The notes under the pieces: generated by a model | The model's input: the letters and a program-made list of their open reading frames with translations, nothing else | Database searches by the model: none | Told to the model about the DNA's origin: nothing | Part shown: piece after piece, positions 44,174-51,491 of the stretch | Position numbering within the stretch: the stretch's first letter is position 1 | How the letters are laid out: each line of letters starts with the position of its first letter | Translations under genes and position numbers: made by a program | Assembly (NCBI GenBank): GCA_022813865.1 | Contig: JALDZX010000004.1 | Span: forward strand, 372,001 to 436,000 | Source: Xylographa opegraphella | Taxonomy: Eukaryota | Length of the DNA stretch: 64,000 bases | Direction: 5' to 3'

Positions 44174-47100
44174 ATGGCCAACGAGGACCATCTAGCGTAC
44201 GGAGACCTTGCCGAAGGCGACGAAAGTAAAGGCGCGTCTGGAAGTGCATCCGCAAAGACCTCGACGAAACCGGGTGGCAAGTTTTCCTCGTTCTTGGGCA
44301 AAGTGCAGCAGACCGCGCACGAGCTCGGGTCCGAGCTTGCCAATGTATTCTCTAGAGGTGAAGACCACAGTCACATCCATGTCGGTGCCAACTGCGCCGA
44401 TGGTATGCACAAGTCTATCCATAGATTCGATAGCTTTGCAGGAGAAAGAGACTCCAACGACGTCAAATGGTATGTCGACGGCTGCGGTTACATGTGGGCC
44501 GTTTCTATTGCTCTTGAGCAGGCGAAAGAATCAATATGGATCTTAGATTGTAAGGAAGGCATGCCTAATATTCATTAGATGCTGCTGAGTCCGTCCATAG
44601 GGTGGCTGACCCCAGAACTTTACCTGCGTCGACCCCCAGACAAAAACAGACAGTATCGTCTTGATCGGATGCTTCAAGCAGCAGCTCAGAGAGGGGTAAA
44701 GGTAAATGTCATCGTATACAAGGAAGTCTCTCAGGCCCTTACCCGTAAGTATCTGTCTCCAATCTTGCCTGGCTATCTGCATTCGCTCCTCCCACGAGGT
44801 ACAGATTTGGTGACATCGGCTATGAGCCGGCTCGGGATTGCTGCGACTTTTGCGTCTCTTGAGTATGCGGAAGCTCAAAACCCGCTGATTTCTCCGCCTC
44901 TCATAGTCGACTCGGCCCACACCAAGCAAGCATTGGAAGCTCTGCATCCGAACATCAGTGTCTTCCGTCATCCCGATCACCTTCCAGATGCCCAAACACT
45001 AGAATCTTCTTTTCTTTCCTCCCTGAAAAACCTCTCCTTGTCTGCCGCAACCATGTCAAAGCTGCCCGAGGATGCACTCAAGGCAGTTTATGGCATGAAT
45101 GAAGATGTGGTATTGTATTGGGCACATCATGAGAAGCTTTGCCTCATTGATGGAAAAATTGCATTCTTGGGAGGCCTAGATCTATGCTACGGACGTTGGG
45201 ACACCAATCAGCACTCTATTGTTGATGTTCATCCTGAAAATTTGGAAGATATTATCTGGCCTGGTCAGGTAAGCCCGATGCAACTCAGCTGCTCGTCATA
45301 TACTGTTTGAGTACTTATATTGTTGAATTCTAGGACTATAACAATGCTCGGATAAGTGATTTCACAGATGTCGCCGATGCTGCTTGGAAAAATAATAGCT
45401 TAAATCGAACGGAGAGCTCAAGAATGGGATGGTCCGATATCTCGATCGGCTTACGAGGCCCGGCTGTCGAAGATCTCAAAGCACACTTTGTAGAGCGATG
45501 GAACTTCATATACAAAGAGAAATACGATGTGGGAGGAGACTCCAGGTATTCCGCAATTGCTGTCCAGCAGAGTACACACGGCTTGATGACACACATGAAG
45601 TCTGGACTTCACAACCTCGAAGCTCACGCAAAGCATTTGCGGGCTTCTGGAAGCTCTTCATCAACCAATGCTATTGGAGCCATGAACGATCGGGTAACCG
45701 ATCGAACACAAGAAGCCGAAGCCGAAGCCGAAGCCGCACCTTTTGGTGAAACCACTGCGTCAGGATCACATGCTGGGGCTGCATGTCAAGTTGTGCGCAG
45801 CTGCACTAATTGGAGCCATGGTGTTGACACCGAGCATTCAGTTGCCAATGCTTATATCAGTATCATCCGTGACAGTCAGCATTTTATTTATATTGAAAAC
45901 CAATTCTTTATAACAGCCACAACGTCATCGCAAAAGCCTGTCCTCAACAAGCTCGGTGCTGCTATTTTGGAACGAATACTACGTGCTGCAAAAGCCGGAG
46001 AAAAGTATATGATTATTGTGATTATTCCAGCCGTCCCGGGCTTTGCCGGGGATCTTAAAGACGAGTCTAGCCTCGGTACCAGGTTAGTCGACGACTTCTC
46101 AGATAAGAGAAGCAGTACAATCTGACAGTATTGAATACAGAGCTATCATGGATTTCCAGTACAAAGCAATCAACCGTGGCGGCCACAGTATTATTGAATC
46201 GATTGAGGCGGCGGGATATCGTGCAAATGACTTTATTCGATTTTACAATCTCCGCAATTACGACAGGATCAACGTAAGTGCATCGATGCGGAAAGCTGAG
46301 AATGCCAGCGGCGTCAAGTACGAAGATGCTCGACGCGAACACGATGATATTATGGATCCTGTAGGTTATCGTGCGCAAGATGGGGATTTACATCCAGAAG
46401 AAGGAATAACCGGGCATCCGTACCAAAAGTATCAACAGGTATCTGACGGCTTGGCTCCTTCGCGAGGACTTGCTAGCGGTCGCTGGGACAGCGTAAGCGA
46501 GTGTTATATGCTCGGAGGATTAGATATTCGTCAAGTCCCGTGGGAGAATGGAGATTATTCGGAGATGGATGCTTTCGTCAGTGAGGAGCTCTATATTCAT
46601 TCGAAGGTTCTCATTGCAGACGACCGCATGGTCATTTGCGGATCAGCTAATTTGAACGATCGTTCTCAACTTGGTGATCACGACTCTGAAATTGCGCTCG
46701 TTATTCAGGACTCAGAATCTGTGGATTCCATGATGAACGGACAACCATGGCGAGCAACCAAATTCGCAGCAACCCTAAGACGACAGCTCTTCCGCAAACA
46801 TGTTGGACTTCTTGCACCACAAAACATGAAACAACCTGATCACAACTTTGAGACGATAGCAGTACCCAATGTGTACGACTTCGGCACAAAGGAAGACAAA
46901 GCTGTAATGGATCCTCTCTCAGACCAGTTCCTGGAGTTATGGAATGGCACTGCGAAACAAAACTCCGAGGCTTTCGGGCGTATATTTCATCCTGTACCCC
47001 ATGACAGCGTGCGAACTTGGGAGCAGTACGATTCTTTTTACGAGCGCTTCTTTCATAACGCGGACGATGAAGCTACAGATAAGGATGGAAATAAGACGCC

Positions 47101-47293
47101 CGCCAAATACAGGTGGGGTCATGTTATTGCAGACAATTTTTCTCCTGGCGAGCAAGGGCTCAAAGAAATGAAAGACTTGCTGAGCACGATCAAAGGAACG
47201 CTGGTGGAAATGCCGTTGAATTTCTTGATCGAAGAGGACATCGCAAGGCAGGGGCTATTGCTGAACGCGTTCACTGAGCCTATCTATACCTGA
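44174..47293 (+). CDS. Phospholipase D lacking PX/PH domains (fungal PldA-type), multi-exon
   Basis: KWYVDGCGY; WILD|WWLTPELYLRRPP; two HKD motifs, WAHHEKLCLIDGKIAFLGGLD and YIHSKVLIADDRMVICGSANLNDRS; HFIYIENQFFI. Introns 44550-44600 and 44745-44906, plus two more. Confidence 0.95.
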
Positions 47294-49263
47294 TCATCTA
47301 TGACTAGGAGCTTTGAGCATATTTGCCGGCTGAGTATAACCTCAAGCTATCCGTGCTTTCGTCTCGATGGTCGTTATGAAGGCGAGTCTTGCTGCTTCAA
47401 AGCGTGCTCAAGAAAAAGTTAAGCCCCTGAATCATTCTGCTATCTTTCAGTAGCAAGTGTTATCAATAGTGCTTTATGTCATATCTCGCCTGCATGGAGG
47501 TTTTCTGCCATTGGTAGTTTTAAGACCGTAGAATGTACCCTAATTTTGAGTGCATGGCTCACCTGTGAATCCATCAATTTCTTTTCCGTTTCTTGACTAT
47601 TACCAGCTATCTGATTTCTGCGAGCTTTCTACGATTTGCGAGGACAGAGGATCACGTCATCATTGTTATGCTGGACTTGTAAACGGTGGGGTGAAAACTC
47701 TTCTACCCGATACACAGCTGGAATCAATAGCTGTTCTCCTCTCTGACAAAGGTGCGGGCATGTTGACCTGTGCCGTGTGTTCATCGAGCTCTACATATTA
47801 ATGCCGAGAGGGCCGACCGATACGAACTTTGGAGTAAGATGTTGCAGCTACGGAGAACTATTTAATAGATAGGCTAGACTCAATAACGATTACGGCTGGA
47901 TTGTTATGGCTCGATAGGTTCACAGAACGAGCTAAGGAACTTCGAGATCGATCTGAATAGCTCTCTTGACAAAGTCTTGAGCGCAGCGTAAGGTTATTCA
48001 TATACCGCGGTGACTGACCGTATTACCGTTCTGATATGCCGCCAGGTATCAACTCACTCGTGGAAACAGGAACGGTAATGTTCCTCGGTCTTTGAGTGTG
48101 CTTTGTGGACATGAAAGTTCTTCCTGCACTAGCCGAAACCAGTCTTTTATTGGAGGCTTTCACACCATATGTTCGCTTCAACAATTTCATTCCGCTCTTT
48201 TAACAATGCTTCTCTGCTGCTCTTTGAGACAGGGTAGATCCGCACTCTGCCGCTTCGATCAACAATGGCTGGAGGCTTTCCACTGAAACGTGGGCAGAGA
48301 ACATTACCGTGCGCACCAGTTGTGACACTTGGTTACCTGCGTGAACAGCTTTGTGGTTTTCAAGGTAGCACCCTTCGGGGCCGGCAACCCGGTTTCTGTA
48401 CACTGGTTTCTGGGAACTCTGGCAGCTCTGAATGTTGCAAGAGATCCAGCACAACAAATTTGCCGTTGGGTCCCAGAGGCATTCTTCGGTACAACGGAAT
48501 CATGCTGTCTGGGAGGATGCTGTTCGCTTATTTGAGAGCTGCAGGGACGGACGTATTAGTCCCCTTCTCACTGTCACGAAGATCAGCCATCTCCTTGATT
48601 CTCTTACACTACTTGGTGAGAAGAGGCGCTGTTTTCATTTAAGACGTTGGTGCCAAACTGCTCTTCAACGTGTACATGAACAGTGAGGGAGACGGTTCAA
48701 TAATTAGGCGGCCTCCCAGTCATTTGCATCGACAGAATCCGCATTGACAGCTTTCTCTGCCACATCAACACACTAGAGTGCACGTTTAATACAGTACAGG
48801 GTCGTGTGGACGGGCCGTCGATGAGACCTGTTGTAACCGTGAGGCACGATGGATTCGGTGATGACTTCGCGATCCATAGAGCTGAATTCACTGGTCCGGG
48901 AGCCTGAACTCGATTACTACTACCGACTCTACTGCTGCGCAGTTTGTTAGGACGCTATGTATGGGGATTGCTTGACCGGTAGTTGGATATATTGATGTTA
49001 AGAAGGTGGCCGCGGTTGACTTCAGTATTTAATATGAATGCAGGCCAATCTTTGTGGTTAGCTGCCTCCTGATACTCCAATACTGCTTGCTAATCTCGAT
49101 AAATGGAAATAGATCATGTTGGTGGTTGTATATACCAAATCGCCGTCGCAGGATTGTGTCAAATTGTTTCCATCAACTGCGACCCGATAGGGTAGATTGA
49201 TTGAAAATGTTACAAGAAACAACCGTTATGTTGGAAGCAGTATGCGTCCGCATTCGACGCAAG

Positions 49264-49289
49264 ACAATACTAACAAGAGACAATACTAA
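49264..49289 (+). repeat. Tandem ACAATACTAA pair, 16-bp period (candidate cis-element)
   Basis: acaatactaa at 49264 and 49280. Confidence 0.6.
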
Positions 49290-50013
49290 GGGTTTCGCTT
49301 AAATGGCTTTCGACGAAAGAAGACTAGCTCTTACAGCCACAACGTTCAGCCTTGAGTTGCATTGGCAATTTGGCTGCCTATCAATTCCACGAACACGAGC
49401 TGATCTAGGCTACCGCCAAGCTGTTAAGATTGTGCTGTTTGTCAAACGACCTGTCTTGCCGTTTACGGTGGTGGACTTCGATATATGTAGAGCAATTTCG
49501 CCAAACTTGCTTCTCGAAGTTGAAAAAGTTCCTCGTTCCTACATATCGAGTTCCTCAATGCAGTGGCCGAGGTGAATCTCTCCGCTGTTGGTTATTCCCA
49601 TCCTAGGAGCCTTAGTGCATGAAACTATGTCAAGTTGATTTGCCGTGAATTATGCTGGGTGGGTCCGTGGAGAGTCGGCTGCCTCTTACGTGTGACGGTC
49701 CCGGTTCATGCAGTGTGAATATCTTTGTATGACTCCTCGGCGCAAGCTCGATATGTTGCTCCGACGGGATAATTTTCATTGGCCCTGGGACTTGATCGAA
49801 TAGTGAATGAGTGTCTCATTCATCCGCTTTTGTATACCTTGAACTGTACCCTTTCACCCAAGCATATTCCGCTGATATCATTGACCACGAGCGGAGCCTC
49901 TTGGGCGTGACCAGAAATAGCGTTTCATTCACGTCTCCAGGACTTGGTCCACGACTTCCTCATCCTTCATCCACAACTCTCGAAAAGTCATTCAAATTCT
50001 TTCATCACCGAGA

Positions 50014-50042
50014 ACAATATTAAGCAAGTACAATATTAAGCA
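50014..50042 (+). repeat. Tandem ACAATATTAAGCA pair, 16-bp period (candidate cis-element)
   Basis: acaatattaagca at 50014 and 50030, about 280-300 nt upstream of the pheromone-like ATG. Confidence 0.6.
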
Positions 50043-50318
50043 TCACAGCCTTCTTCAGCTCTACCTCTACGACAAAGGAAACCGCATACAGAGTCGAAAA
50101 GCCACCTTATCACGCTCTTCAAATCACCAAGCCGAAGCTAAGCGTGTAAGTAGCCATAAATATCAGCTTCTTGCCAGACTCTTCTCTTCCTTCATCCACA
50201 TCTCACTCTTTCCATCCCAAAGTCGTACAGCACACTAGTAAAAGATACAACATCGTTCTATTGAGCATCGCGCTGACTCTACTAAGATCCTCAGACTTAC
50301 CATACGTCCGATTTCACG

Positions 50319-50516
50319 ATGCCTCCAGCTGCTACCAATGCCGCGCCCGCTGAGGTCGAGGTTCCCAAAGATAACCGAGGTAGGCCACTCCAAGCCACTC
50401 CAAGCACCTTGCTATATGATTGTTGAGCCCGTCTCATGCTTTTCACATCCTGAATCAGAGAATCATCAACTAATATGCTTCTAGGCAACCCATACTATGG
50501 TTGCGCTGTTATGTAA
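50319..50516 (+). CDS. Candidate a-factor-like (CAAX lipopeptide) mating pheromone precursor, 30 aa: MPPAATNAAPAEVEVPKDNRGNPYYGCAVM; exons 50319-50379 and 50485-50516
   Basis: ATG in a good context (ttcacgATG); GTAGGC donor at 50380, CTAAT branch at 50470, TAG acceptor at 50484. The spliced frame ends exactly in CAVM-stop; size and Pro/Ala/Thr-rich N-terminus match fungal a-class pheromone precursors. Confidence 0.8.
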
Positions 50517-51491
50517 TACAATGACACCAGCACAATATACCTTGGACATCCTCAATCCTCCACTTTCATACTACCCAGTCTCTTCAAATGACGGAATCAG
50601 CTTGGTCGATCGCGAGCTGGTGTAGCTTGTCACTTTCAAGGCTGAATTGCGATGAAACAGACCATAACTCTGGGATGGCGGATTAGTCCTGGGTCAACTT
50701 CCAGTTCACTTACTTGTATTTTTTCTGCTATTATAGCCGGCCCTTACTTCCGTCCAGTTGACTTGTCTTGCCAGGCTTCTGCCTAGGTGGGAAGGATCAT
50801 GGCATACCTGGGCATGGCTCTTGTTTCTTATCACTCCTCTCTTTCTCTTCTGCCTGCAATTTACGGAGATCTCCTGTTTTTATACTACTGACTTCCCAAG
50901 CGATGTCCCGAAGGTCTAGCTAGCCTAAGAGACAGATCTTAGCCGATCAATATCAAACGCTTGAAGAAACTTCTGACGGACATGTGACATGGTGAAATCT
51001 AGTGCCCTGTCAAAGCTGCGTAACCACACTGCATAAATAGTGCTTTGATAATCACGAAACATGTGAGCCGAGAAGAAAGACGCACGGATAAGCGGTCTAC
51101 CTGGTTGCGGGCATTGTAGTACTCCGTAGTTTCGCCAGAGGTGCTTAGAGTGGAGCCCTGCAGCATCGCTGCATAACTTGACTCGTCAAGAGCCTTCGAT
51201 ATATCTGAAACTGTTACTGTAAACTACGATCGAAAATACAGTTGTGATTTTGTATCAAGATTGACATGAAAAGGGGTCGGAGTGAGAATCATGACGCTAA
51301 TGTTTTTGAAGATGCCCAATTTCCAGCCGCACAACTTCAGCGTCAAGCCGCATATGTTGGCCGCCCAAATTTGCTGTCAAGCCGCTTGTTGCTTTAACAC
51401 TTCTCTGTGCCTGAGGTAAAGCTTGCGTTATGGCGATGATAATTGTTGTCTCTTTTGCTACAATCCTCGATCCTTCCTCAACATCCACAAT

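Follow-up and report, generated by a model that had tools for sequence, protein, structure and literature searches.

A short intron-split CaaX gene between phospholipase D and Ybp1-like genes very probably encodes an a-type lipopeptide pheromone precursor in a lichen-forming fungus

We identified a 30-codon, intron-split gene at positions 50319-50516 (+ strand) of the window, the 64-kb stretch of DNA analysed here. Judged by its sequence and by that of its relatives, it is very probably a real protein-coding gene for a 30-residue precursor of an a-type (a-factor/M-factor-like) lipopeptide mating pheromone. At least nine fungal lineages carry genes of the family to which it belongs, CaaX genes of 21-34 codons located downstream of a phospholipase D (PLD) gene and adjoining a Ybp1-like gene. 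In lichen-forming fungi, crosses cannot be used to study mating, and no pheromone signals are known. Our literature search found no lichen a-type pheromone, and the word 'pheromone' is absent from the main text of the Lepraria paper on sexual genes.

Results

The gene opens with an ATG at 50319. Coding exon 1 (50319-50379, + strand, 61 nt) encodes the N-terminal extension; its 20 codons, start codon included, are followed by a single base that opens a Gly codon. Next comes a phase-1 intron of 105 nt (50380-50484, +) with a GTAGGC donor, a CTAAT at 50470-50474 and a TAG end. Coding exon 2 (50485-50516, +, 32 nt) completes that Gly codon, then encodes NPYYGCAVM and ends with the stop codon (50514-50516); presumably it holds the mature pheromone with its AAX tail. 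Joining 50379 to 50485 yields exactly the 30-residue peptide of the first-pass annotation, in which C-A-V-M is followed directly by the stop; the unspliced frame has no CaaX box, as had been claimed; it stops after 35 residues, ending YDC. The splice sites chosen there are the same ones that the relatives' genes support: both exons align with the corresponding exons of the relatives, and the intron has the same place and phase in eight of nine lineages. In residues 1-20, read from the translation, Pro, Ala, Thr, Glu and Lys abound, a hydrophobic core is lacking and no signal peptide is apparent.

The proposed location between the PLD and Ybp1-like genes also held. The gap measures about 4.1 kb, from the end of the last PLD ORF at 47293 to the start of the Ybp1-like ORF at 51423. 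The upstream syntenic anchor is the last large ORF of the PLD gene (46148-47293, +; Pfam PLDc and PLDc_2) and the downstream anchor is a Ybp1/Ybp2-like gene consisting of two ORFs (51423-53596, +; Pfam Kinetochor_Ybp2). A strict rule for CaaX-stop sites (a1 one of AVILMT, a2 one of AVILM, X one of MSQAC) finds five such sites on the two strands of the 64-kb window, CAVM being one of them, and models of at least 18 aa that begin with an ATG reach two of the five. The other of these two models, a CaaX ORF in the same gap (48849-48950, 33 aa), was taken as a chance occurrence, having no homologue in any locus (best tblastn E-value 0.45). The window also contains an Spb1 ORF with 87-91% identity to proteins of four Xylographa species, which points to a Xylographa-like lichen-forming fungus as the source.

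Relatives were sought in 80 metagenome loci, fetched via the neighbouring Ybp1-like gene. The first-pass annotation had set the PLD-Ybp1 interval of related genomes as a check, and a short spliced CaaX gene is present there in 17 of the 17 loci that contain both flanking genes, always on the same strand as PLD and 0.9-3.0 kb past its stop codon; one of the 17, L003, has GTG in the start position. Six more loci have the family gene with PLD out of reach, bringing the total to 23 of 80. A strict scan restricted to the region upstream of Ybp1, on Ybp1's own strand, recovered the gene in three of the 80 loci, and the remainder were found on searching both strands. The phase-1 intron occurs in all nine lineages, and the terminal exon measures exactly 32 nt to the end of the stop codon in eight of them, the window included (41 nt in the L030 group). 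Family introns span 66-153 nt and are conserved neither in length nor in sequence. The window's GTAGGC is the least canonical donor in the family, the relatives having GTAAGT, GTACGT or GTATGT, and L005 GCAAGT.

The window peptide shares with its relatives an exon 1 motif, M-[PQS]-P ... A-A-P-x-E, and the exon 2 ends of the relatives read QPGYGCTVM, QTGYGCTVM or QVGYSCTVM. Identity to the window peptide is 18/30 for both the L002 and L012 lineages, 15/29 for L018 and 14/27 for L034. The corresponding Smith-Waterman scores (83, 84, 67 and 62 for L002, L012, L018 and L034) compare with shuffle means of 18-21 (sd about 4) and were reached by 0 of 5000 shuffles. Similarity to the most distant groups, L030 and L071, is weak, with a score of 28 each that was reached by 122 and 46 of 5000 shuffles, respectively.

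L018 and L019 have an identity of 0.99 in exon 1 and 1.0 in exon 2, against 0.60 in the intron; for L030 and L035 the corresponding values are 0.92, 0.95 and 0.44. Across the lichen-type lineages exon 2 identity is 0.84-1.0 and intron identity 0.35-0.66. Among the ten loci of the L002 group, variable columns number 3/67 in exon 1, 16/102 in the intron and 0/32 in exon 2, and amount to 47.8% of the 5' flank and 28.8% of the 3' flank. Exons that are kept while introns and flanks drift are the signature of purifying selection on the family's coding parts.

At the nucleotide level, a blastn search with the 4-kb gap as query found no match in any locus at E 1e-3, so that conservation is seen only in peptide, structure and motif, and an exact degenerate exon 2 pattern matched no stretch in the metagenome contigs. 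Two large protein libraries, queried with the 65-aa unspliced ORF of L018, yielded no family homologue (in one of them no candidate had three words in common with the query), and thus no annotated or named homologue backs the pheromone reading. Their sole match, a 3172-aa protein hit in 12 stretches, was taken as low-complexity noise. The unspliced ORFs of L018, L020 and L019 extend to 65 and 55 aa because their introns are in frame and stop-free. In L057 the family gene has 23 codons and ends in CVVM, and the Ybp1 ORF of the same contig matches a protein of Penicillium citrinum at 97% identity (283/292), which extends the family to the Eurotiales.

The start codon of the window gene is the first ATG after a G-poor, ATG-free stretch of leader and promoter of 512 nt (49807-50318, +), the second longest of 1100 ATG gaps on the + strand. 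An ATG-free leader precedes the start codon in all lineages, with a length of 140-513 nt in the relatives. This stretch carries a proximal pair of HMG/M-box-like ACAATATTAA boxes at 50014 and 50030 (50014-50039, +), 16 nt apart, and, 41 nt behind the second of them, GACAAAGGAA (50071-50080, +), a candidate Ste11/HMG-box-like site with GACAAAGG at 50071. A motif search located a distal pair of ACAATACTAA boxes (49264-49289, +) about 1.05 kb upstream of the ATG, and the relatives likewise have a distal box at -1015 to -1460. Read from the sequence, CATAAATAT (50155-50163, +) is a candidate TATA-like element; TATA-like CATAAATAC, GTATAAATAT and CTTAAATAC occur 100-200 nt upstream of the ATG in L018, L019, L034, L057, L071 and L080. 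A possible 5'-UTR intron (50238-50294, +) reads GTAAAA...CTGAC / TACTAAG...CAG, with an alternative GTAAGT donor at 50146, and L018, L019 and L034 have an intron-like GTAAGC...CAG stretch that ends about 30 nt before the ATG.

The boxes are strongly concentrated at the family genes. ACAATAYTAA occurs four times in the window against 0.09 expected, every time upstream of the gene. The box motif was defined on the window itself and then counted in the relatives: ACAATAYYAA is found 61 times in 26,029 nt upstream of 24 family genes, versus 14 times in 724,620 nt elsewhere, and the nine lineage representatives have 23 boxes versus 0.099 expected from composition-matched Markov sequences, with at least one box in eight of the nine. 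The window, the L002 group, the L018 group and L034 all carry a module of two boxes with RACAAAG 12-45 nt behind the pair. Upstream of the window gene, ACAAT-core boxes are thus followed by an AACAAAG-type box, as in promoters of the M-box plus Ste11-box type. The MAT1-1-1 motif CTATTGAG at 50258 was dropped as a candidate site: the window has four copies where 2.07 are expected, a number attained in 14 of 100 shuffles.

Discussion

The CaaX end, the size and the HMG-type boxes of the promoter all agree with the reading of the window gene as an a-type lipopeptide pheromone, first made in the first-pass annotation. The precursor is short with a hydrophilic N-terminal extension, its CaaX box is of the farnesyl type, and the gene and its C-terminal part are conserved in relatives. 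By analogy with the a-factor pathway, which comprises Ram1/Ram2, Ste24/Rce1, Ste14, Ste24 plus Axl1/Ste23, and Ste6 (in the sections cited of PMC2134810 and the Srikant preprint), the Cys of CAVM would be farnesylated, AVM removed and the new C-terminus methylated. The hydrophilic extension would then be trimmed off, and the peptide would be exported through a Ste6-type ABC pump and act on the Ste3/PreA-class receptor of the partner; the window does not contain the receptor gene. The earlier idea that KDN marks the site of N-terminal processing finds no support: KDN is not conserved, the relatives having E-A, D-S or D-A before Arg, and what recurs is only a basic residue at the exon junction (R or K directly before the segment encoded by exon 2 in eight of nine lineages). 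The mature form may be the heptapeptide encoded by exon 2, G-N-P-Y-Y-G-C(farnesyl)-OMe, or a few residues longer, which is a guess.

Transcription probably proceeds via HMG-domain factors (MAT1-2-1 and a Ste11/PaHMG5-type protein) acting on the paired ACAATAYYAA boxes and the RACAAAG that follows them. Two ACAAT-core M-boxes and then an imperfect Ste11 box, AACAAAG, make up the mfm1-3 promoters of Schizosaccharomyces pombe (Table 3 of PMC1693924), and in Podospora anserina PaHMG5 binds (A/G)ACAAAGAA and its deletion lowers pheromone gene transcripts, according to the part of PMC3730723 that deals with it. Control of this kind would restrict expression to one mating type or sexual stage. The putative Leotiomycete a-factor shows no mating-type-exclusive expression in the data sets examined in section 23 of PMC10569646, and HMG boxes therefore need not imply strict mating-type specificity.

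How firmly does this evidence point to a pheromone? Conservation and structure establish a gene, not its function, and a small prenylated peptide could serve outside mating, for instance as an autocrine or density signal or as a membrane-anchored micro-protein. The exon 2 tail is identical in the L002 group and L012 although exon 1 and the Ybp1 genes clearly differ, which exceeds the conservation of some pheromones. In addition, the putative Leotiomycete a-factor is expressed in a MAT1-1 isolate and in sclerotia (portion cited of PMC10569646), and the a-pheromone and Ste3 of Fusarium oxysporum take part in autocrine signalling (as outlined in the review PMC13308352). Nonetheless, the peptide bears the hallmarks of a-type pheromones in its size, its CaaX box with a final M, its hydrophilic N-terminal extension and the aromatic or Gly residues that precede the Cys, and the promoter box layout is that of the S. 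pombe M-factor genes. Moreover, we know of no other class of 20-35-residue CaaX peptides in fungi, and a non-mating role appears unlikely.

The window copy itself might be decaying or silent within a real family. In place of the GTAAGT-type donors and CTAAC of all its relatives it has GTAGGC and CTAAT; it departs from the commonest form at two of the seven residues that precede the AAX tail and at a1 of the CaaX box; and sterile or asexual lineages occur commonly in lichen fungi. Yet fungal introns do use GTNNGY donors with G at +5, and pheromones normally change from species to species in their mature part. Frame, start codon, intron phase, 32-nt exon and farnesyl-type CaaX box are all intact, as are both box pairs, the RACAAAG site and the 512-nt ATG-free leader, and a decaying or silent copy is very improbable. 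A last concern is that a GT...AG pair accidentally joins an ATG to a CaaX-stop, and such models are indeed easily produced: loose rules (MP start, aromatic near Cys) gave 426 of them in the 80 loci and 12 kb of the window, and stricter phase-1 rules still gave six unrelated places in about 0.75 Mb. Accident can hardly account for one structure recurring at one syntenic position in 17 of 17 loci, for peptides that align better than any of 5000 shuffles, for exons conserved against drifting introns and for promoter boxes held in common; these observations refute a chance ORF computationally, and we regard it as barely conceivable.

Taking the window gene as an a-type pheromone gene, a wider reading can be put forward tentatively, which we ourselves would rather doubt than believe. 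The gene would be one member of an ancient single-locus a-factor family of filamentous ascomycetes, located behind PLD and recognisable by a phase-1 intron that leaves exactly 32 nt to the end of the stop codon; paired ACAATAYYAAG boxes together with a Ste11-type box would drive its transcription, in the same HMG logic as the fission-yeast M-factor genes. The promoter layout in common with those genes suggests that HMG control of lipopeptide pheromones is old. If the wider reading is true, the regulatory module predates the split between fission yeast and filamentous ascomycetes, the exon 2 heptapeptide is the mature lichen pheromone, and the PLD flank, 32-nt exon and boxes would together serve to annotate the 'missing' a-factor gene in Lecanoromycetes, Eurotiales and further groups. 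Annotation pipelines overlook this gene class, and the blanks from the two large protein libraries are in keeping with that; position, terminal exon and promoter boxes already give a practical rule for finding such genes, which also picked up the Penicillium-like member. For lichen-forming fungi, a concrete gene offers a ligand to synthesise, a marker of mating type or sexual stage for thallus transcriptomes, and a handle on the cognate receptor.

A literature search on the peptide motifs returned unrelated matches only. We know of no coding intron in the a-type pheromone genes of Sordariomycetes. Their precursors (Neurospora crassa mfa-1, Sordaria macrospora ppg2, Magnaporthe grisea MF1-1, P. 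anserina mfp, Cryphonectria parasitica Mf2/1) resemble the family described here: they have 21-26 residues, a hydrophilic N-terminus that begins with MPS or MSPS, an aromatic residue just before the Cys and a CaaX box ending in M. Compared by eye only, M. grisea MF1-1 as printed in PMC3068285 shares with the L034 and window peptides an MSP.T.N..AP start, A-R-x-G and a Y-C-x-[VI]-M end. Sordariomycete a-type genes are expressed from the HMG (MAT1-2) mating type (passages cited of PMC3068285 and PMC3730723), and their locus lies downstream of cyanate lyase (PMC3068285, same part), whereas the family here lies between PLD and Ybp1. The h-type precursor HPP1 of Trichoderma reesei contains a repeated (L/I)-G-C-(T/S)-V-M, the last copy of which is the CaaX box (as depicted in PMC3068285). 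Most relatives here have the same G-C-T-V-M end, but HPP1 has three copies and Kex2 sites, and the family has a single copy and no Kex2 site.

The statement in the first-pass annotation that a-class genes have been hard to find outside yeasts and Sordariomycetes stands only in part, being otherwise out of date. In Aspergillus fumigatus, a filamentous ascomycete outside the Sordariomycetes, an a-factor-like pheromone, ppgB, was reportedly described by Krappmann et al. in 2025 (Curr Biol 35:2414), and the family here has its own Penicillium-like member in L057; that work may already describe relatives in other classes. For Leotiomycetes, a putative a-factor was described in 2023 (Botrytis cinerea BCIN_13g03330 and homologues, usually unannotated; Wilson et al., 2023, PMC10569646, in the part concerned). 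According to the same part, its commonest ending is CTVM, a GY motif lies close to the C-terminus, and the N-terminus is rich in Ser and Thr; most lichen-type relatives here end in G-Y-G-C-T-V-M. Compared by description only, it is longer, with 45-64 aa (PMC10569646) against 21-34 aa in the family here.

Among yeasts, the a-factor promoters of Saccharomyces cerevisiae are controlled via Mcm1/a1-alpha2 and Ste12, and the first ten or so residues of its precursor presumably resemble the lichen-type precursors. The a-factor precursor (MFA1/MFA2) has the three parts assumed here, namely N-terminal extension, mature part and CaaX, and matures to a dodecamer (both as stated in the section cited of PMC2134810); MFA1 and MFA2 lack an intron, whereas the window gene has one. 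The S. pombe mfm1-3 genes encode a farnesylated, methylated CaaX pheromone and bear introns (Srikant preprint, section cited), and the M-factor precursors are 30-32 residues longer at the N-terminus (as given in PMC2134810, same section). The core conserved in the boxes here, ACAATAYYAAG, is longer than that of the S. pombe M-boxes. Finally, the box order and spacing range of the mfm1-3 promoters match those of the family here; at 12-45 nt, the spacing here is wider than the 14-26 bp stated in the cited portion of PMC1693924.

Structure and genomic setting of the gene

The gene occupies positions 50319-50516 of the forward strand. Exon 1 (61 nt, 50319-50379) runs from the ATG, read from the window sequence at 50319, to the splice donor; a 105-nt intron (50380-50484) begins with GTAGGC, the weakest donor in the family, carries CTAAT 11 bases from its 3' end and closes with TAG; and exon 2 (32 nt, 50485-50516) ends with a stop at 50514-50516. 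The spliced frame translates into a 30-residue peptide with the C-terminus C-A-V-M, exactly the peptide of the first-pass annotation, and the unspliced frame stops after 35 residues without a CaaX box, as had also been claimed. Upstream, the last ORF of a phospholipase D (PLD) gene (PLDc, PLDc_2) ends at 47293, and downstream lies a Ybp1/Ybp2-like gene (Kinetochor_Ybp2) at 51423-53596 (+); the gap around the gene measures 4.1 kb, in agreement with the proposed interval of about 4 kb. The other genes of the window are ordinary fungal ones (Spb1, DOT1, TruB, a DHHC palmitoyltransferase, a rhomboid, a fungal C2H2 factor). The Spb1 ORF is 87-91% identical to proteins of Xylographa pallens, X. soralifera, X. 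bjoerkii and X. trunciseda, whereas for many other Lecanoromycetes the identity is about 70%. This places the source of the window among Xylographa-like, lichen-forming fungi.

Could such a gene model arise by chance? A strict rule finds five farnesyl-type CaaX-stop sites on both strands of the 64 kb, and only two of them, both in the PLD-Ybp1 gap, give a model of at least 18 aa that begins with an ATG. The second is an unspliced 33-codon ORF (48849-48950, +; ...CCAVC*), which is probably a chance occurrence: it has no boxes of the kind described below upstream, and tblastn found no counterpart in any fetched locus (best E 0.45). The start codon at 50319 is preceded by 512 nt without ATG, the second longest of 1100 such stretches on the forward strand; this stretch is G-poor, and no ATG appears in 1.5% of mononucleotide shuffles of its last 389 nt. 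Loose rules yield abundant CaaX models (426 in the 80 loci below plus 12 kb of the window). Taken alone, rarity within the window and the long ATG-free leader are only suggestive of a gene.

A conserved family between PLD and Ybp1

An exact degenerate pattern of exon 2 gave no matches in metagenome contigs. The first Ybp1 ORF of the window was aligned with 24 relatives and the alignment then used to fetch loci, of which the best 80 of 146 Ybp1-relative stretches were retained with 6-kb flanks (cited below by L numbers). In a strict first scan, limited to the region upstream of Ybp1 and to its strand, only 3 of the 80 loci (L018-L020) gave a spliced CaaX model; later scans of both strands added many, bringing the carriers to 23 (L002-L005, L008-L012, L018-L020, L030, L031, L034, L035, L040, L057, L065, L071, L073, L075 and L080). 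By peptide these form eight lineages, the window being one more. Best model scores are 65-176 for family members versus 21-48 in the remaining 57 loci, which contain neither PLD nor a family member. The PLD gene is also present in 17 of the 80 loci. The interval that the first-pass annotation proposed to inspect in relatives for a short spliced CaaX gene does contain one in all 17, on the PLD strand and 0.9-1.5 kb 3' of the PLD stop; in the window this distance is 3.0 kb. The window and L018-L020 have PLD and Ybp1 in the same orientation; in the other lineages with both genes (e.g. L002, L034, L030, L057, L080) Ybp1 is inverted. The short gene thus travels with PLD, keeping its place and strand relative to it while the orientation of Ybp1 varies; judging from gene order, the two arrangements are explained by a local inversion of Ybp1. 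Two members deviate in detail: the otherwise L002-like L003:8657-8856 (- strand) has GTG at the start position instead of ATG, and in L005:8651-8850 (- strand) the coding intron donor is GCAAGT, not GTAAGT. Either deviation may reflect natural variation, decay or an error of assembly.

Every lineage has a single phase-1 coding intron of 66-153 nt and unconserved sequence; 8 of the 9 lineages, window included, have a terminal exon of exactly 32 nt, and the L030 group has one of 41 nt. In all lineages the start codon follows an ATG-free leader (140-513 nt) and has an A at -3. The window peptide shares 18/30 residues with the L002 and L012 lineages, 15/29 with L018 and 14/27 with L034; the local alignment scores (83, 84, 67 and 62, respectively) were attained by none of 5000 shuffles (means 18-21, sd about 4). 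For two distant groups the score was 28, attained by 122 and 46 of 5000 shuffles. Family peptides start with M-[PQS]-P and share a Thr/Ala-rich stretch ending in A-A-P-x-E-[VIL]; exon 1 closes with an acidic residue, one further residue and Arg, followed by an intron-split Gly and a tail of the type Q-P-G-Y-G-C-T-V-M, for which the window has N-P-Y-Y-G-C-A-V-M. Pairwise identities for exon 1, intron and exon 2 are 0.99, 0.60 and 1.0 between L018 and L019, and 0.92, 0.44 and 0.95 between L030 and L035. Among ten L002-group loci, variable columns number 3/67 in exon 1, 16/102 in the intron and 0/32 in exon 2, and make up 47.8% of the 5' and 28.8% of the 3' flank. Conserved exons amid drifting introns and flanks bear the signature of purifying selection on a translated gene.

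Promoter boxes and leader

A repeat search revealed a 16-nt tandem pair 5' of the window gene. The window holds four copies of its core, ACAATAYTAA, every one 5' of the gene, against 0.09 expected: a proximal pair at 50014/50030 (+) and a distal pair of ACAATACTAA boxes at 49264-49289 (+; boxes at 49264/49280), 1.05 kb upstream. Relatives likewise have a distal box, at -1015 to -1460. Directly 3' of the distal pair lies a 90-codon ORF (49303-49575) without a Pfam match; this pair may act on the pheromone gene or have another role. In relatives the box reads ACAATAYYAA, mostly followed by G. Up to 1.1 kb 5' of the 24 genes (26,029 nt in total) there are 61 such boxes, versus 14 in the other 724,620 nt, 10 of these 14 lying slightly farther upstream of the same genes. 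Since these statistics count related loci, we also give them per lineage: one representative each yields 23 boxes, where first-order Markov simulations of these regions give an expectation of 0.099 and a maximum total of 3, with at least one box in 8 of 9 lineages, and 19 boxes when the window, the source of the motif definition, is omitted. In four lineages (the window, the L002 and L018 groups, and L034) the boxes form a pair spaced 15-18 nt apart, and RACAAAG comes 12-45 nt behind it; the window site, GACAAAGG, is at 50071 (+).

By sequence, two 5'-UTR introns are possible, with donors GTAAGT at 50146 or GTAAAA at 50238 and a common CAG end at 50294 (+); a TATA-like CATAAATAT (50155-50163, +) falls inside the longer one. 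L018, L019 and L034 likewise have TATA-like elements and what may be a short intron in the 5' UTR, the intron-like stretch ending about 30 nt before the ATG. A further motif, CTATTGAG at 50258-50265 (+), 54 nt 5' of the ATG, matches a reported MAT1-1-1 binding motif; we give it no weight, as the window has 4 copies versus 2.07 expected.

Discussion

What the comparison establishes is a two-exon gene, conserved along with HMG-type boxes in its promoter and predicted to encode a CaaX peptide of 30 residues. The first-pass observation is borne out, and its reading as an a-type lipopeptide pheromone gene is supported in its core. Following the yeast pathway (as outlined in PMC2134810 and the Srikant preprint), the CaaX Cys would be farnesylated, A-V-M cut off and the new end carboxyl-methylated; the N-terminal extension would be removed, and the peptide, exported by a Ste6-type pump, would act on a Ste3-class receptor. 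The first-pass annotation took K-D-N as the N-terminal processing mark, which we do not adopt because relatives do not conserve it in the peptide alignment. Instead, the intron divides extension from tail, and a basic residue ends the part encoded by exon 1 in 8 of 9 lineages; our guess is therefore that the mature pheromone is the exon-2 heptapeptide, or perhaps a slightly longer form.

The family reaches the Eurotiales, as one member sits on a Penicillium-like contig. The L057 Ybp1 ORF clusters at 90% with proteins from Penicillium steckii, P. citrinum and P. hetheringtonii (97% identity, 283/292, to that of P. citrinum), and between PLD and Ybp1 there is a 23-codon gene ending in C-V-V-M (L057:9038-9178, - strand of the locus). 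The intron of this gene is in phase 1, its last exon has 32 nt, and three ACAATAYYAA boxes precede it. Similar short forms are found at L080:8716-8832 and L071/L073/L075:11590-11793. The L057 gene is probably the Penicillium counterpart of ppgB, an a-factor-like pheromone reportedly described from Aspergillus fumigatus in a 2025 paper, which may already cover relatives of this family.

Two large protein libraries, searched with the 65-aa unspliced L018 ORF, yielded no homologue of a family member, which suggests that the gene is annotated nowhere. We found no lichen a-type pheromone in the literature searched, and the main text of a Lepraria paper on sexual genes does not contain the word 'pheromone'; the window gene would thus be the first example from a lichen fungus that we could find. 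The coding intron keeps the frame and contains no stop in L018:3181-3378, L020:3181-3378 and L019:3279-3446. The unspliced ORFs are therefore 65 aa (L018, L020) and 55 aa (L019) long, read-through forms of a kind that gene callers might report. The family features offer a useful search rule, and the promoter a parallel to fission yeast.

By the account of Wilson et al. (2023), a-factor genes of filamentous ascomycetes had until then not been found outside the Sordariomycetes (PMC10569646). The Leotiomycete a-factor proposed there has 45-64 aa, mostly a CTVM end and a GY motif, and thus, compared by description, matches the G-Y-G-C-T-V-M tails of the family; more speculatively, its length might in part be due to intron read-through. 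At its two ends the M. grisea precursor (PMC3068285) resembles, by eye only, the peptides of L034 and the window, and the HPP1 motif (L/I)GC(T/S)VM in the same source ends as most family tails do. In S. pombe, mfm1-3 carry two ACAAT-core M-boxes for the HMG protein Mat1-Mc and then an imperfect Ste11 box, AACAAAG (PMC1693924, Table 3), the same box-box-Ste11 layout as in the family promoters that have RACAAAG; spacing differs, being 14-26 bp in S. pombe (PMC1693924) and wider in the family. PaHMG5 of Podospora, the Ste11 orthologue, is described as binding (A/G)ACAAAGAA, and its deletion lowers pheromone gene transcripts by orders of magnitude (PMC3730723). From the shared layout and this precedent we infer that the window gene is under the control of HMG-domain factors, with the boxes as candidate sites.
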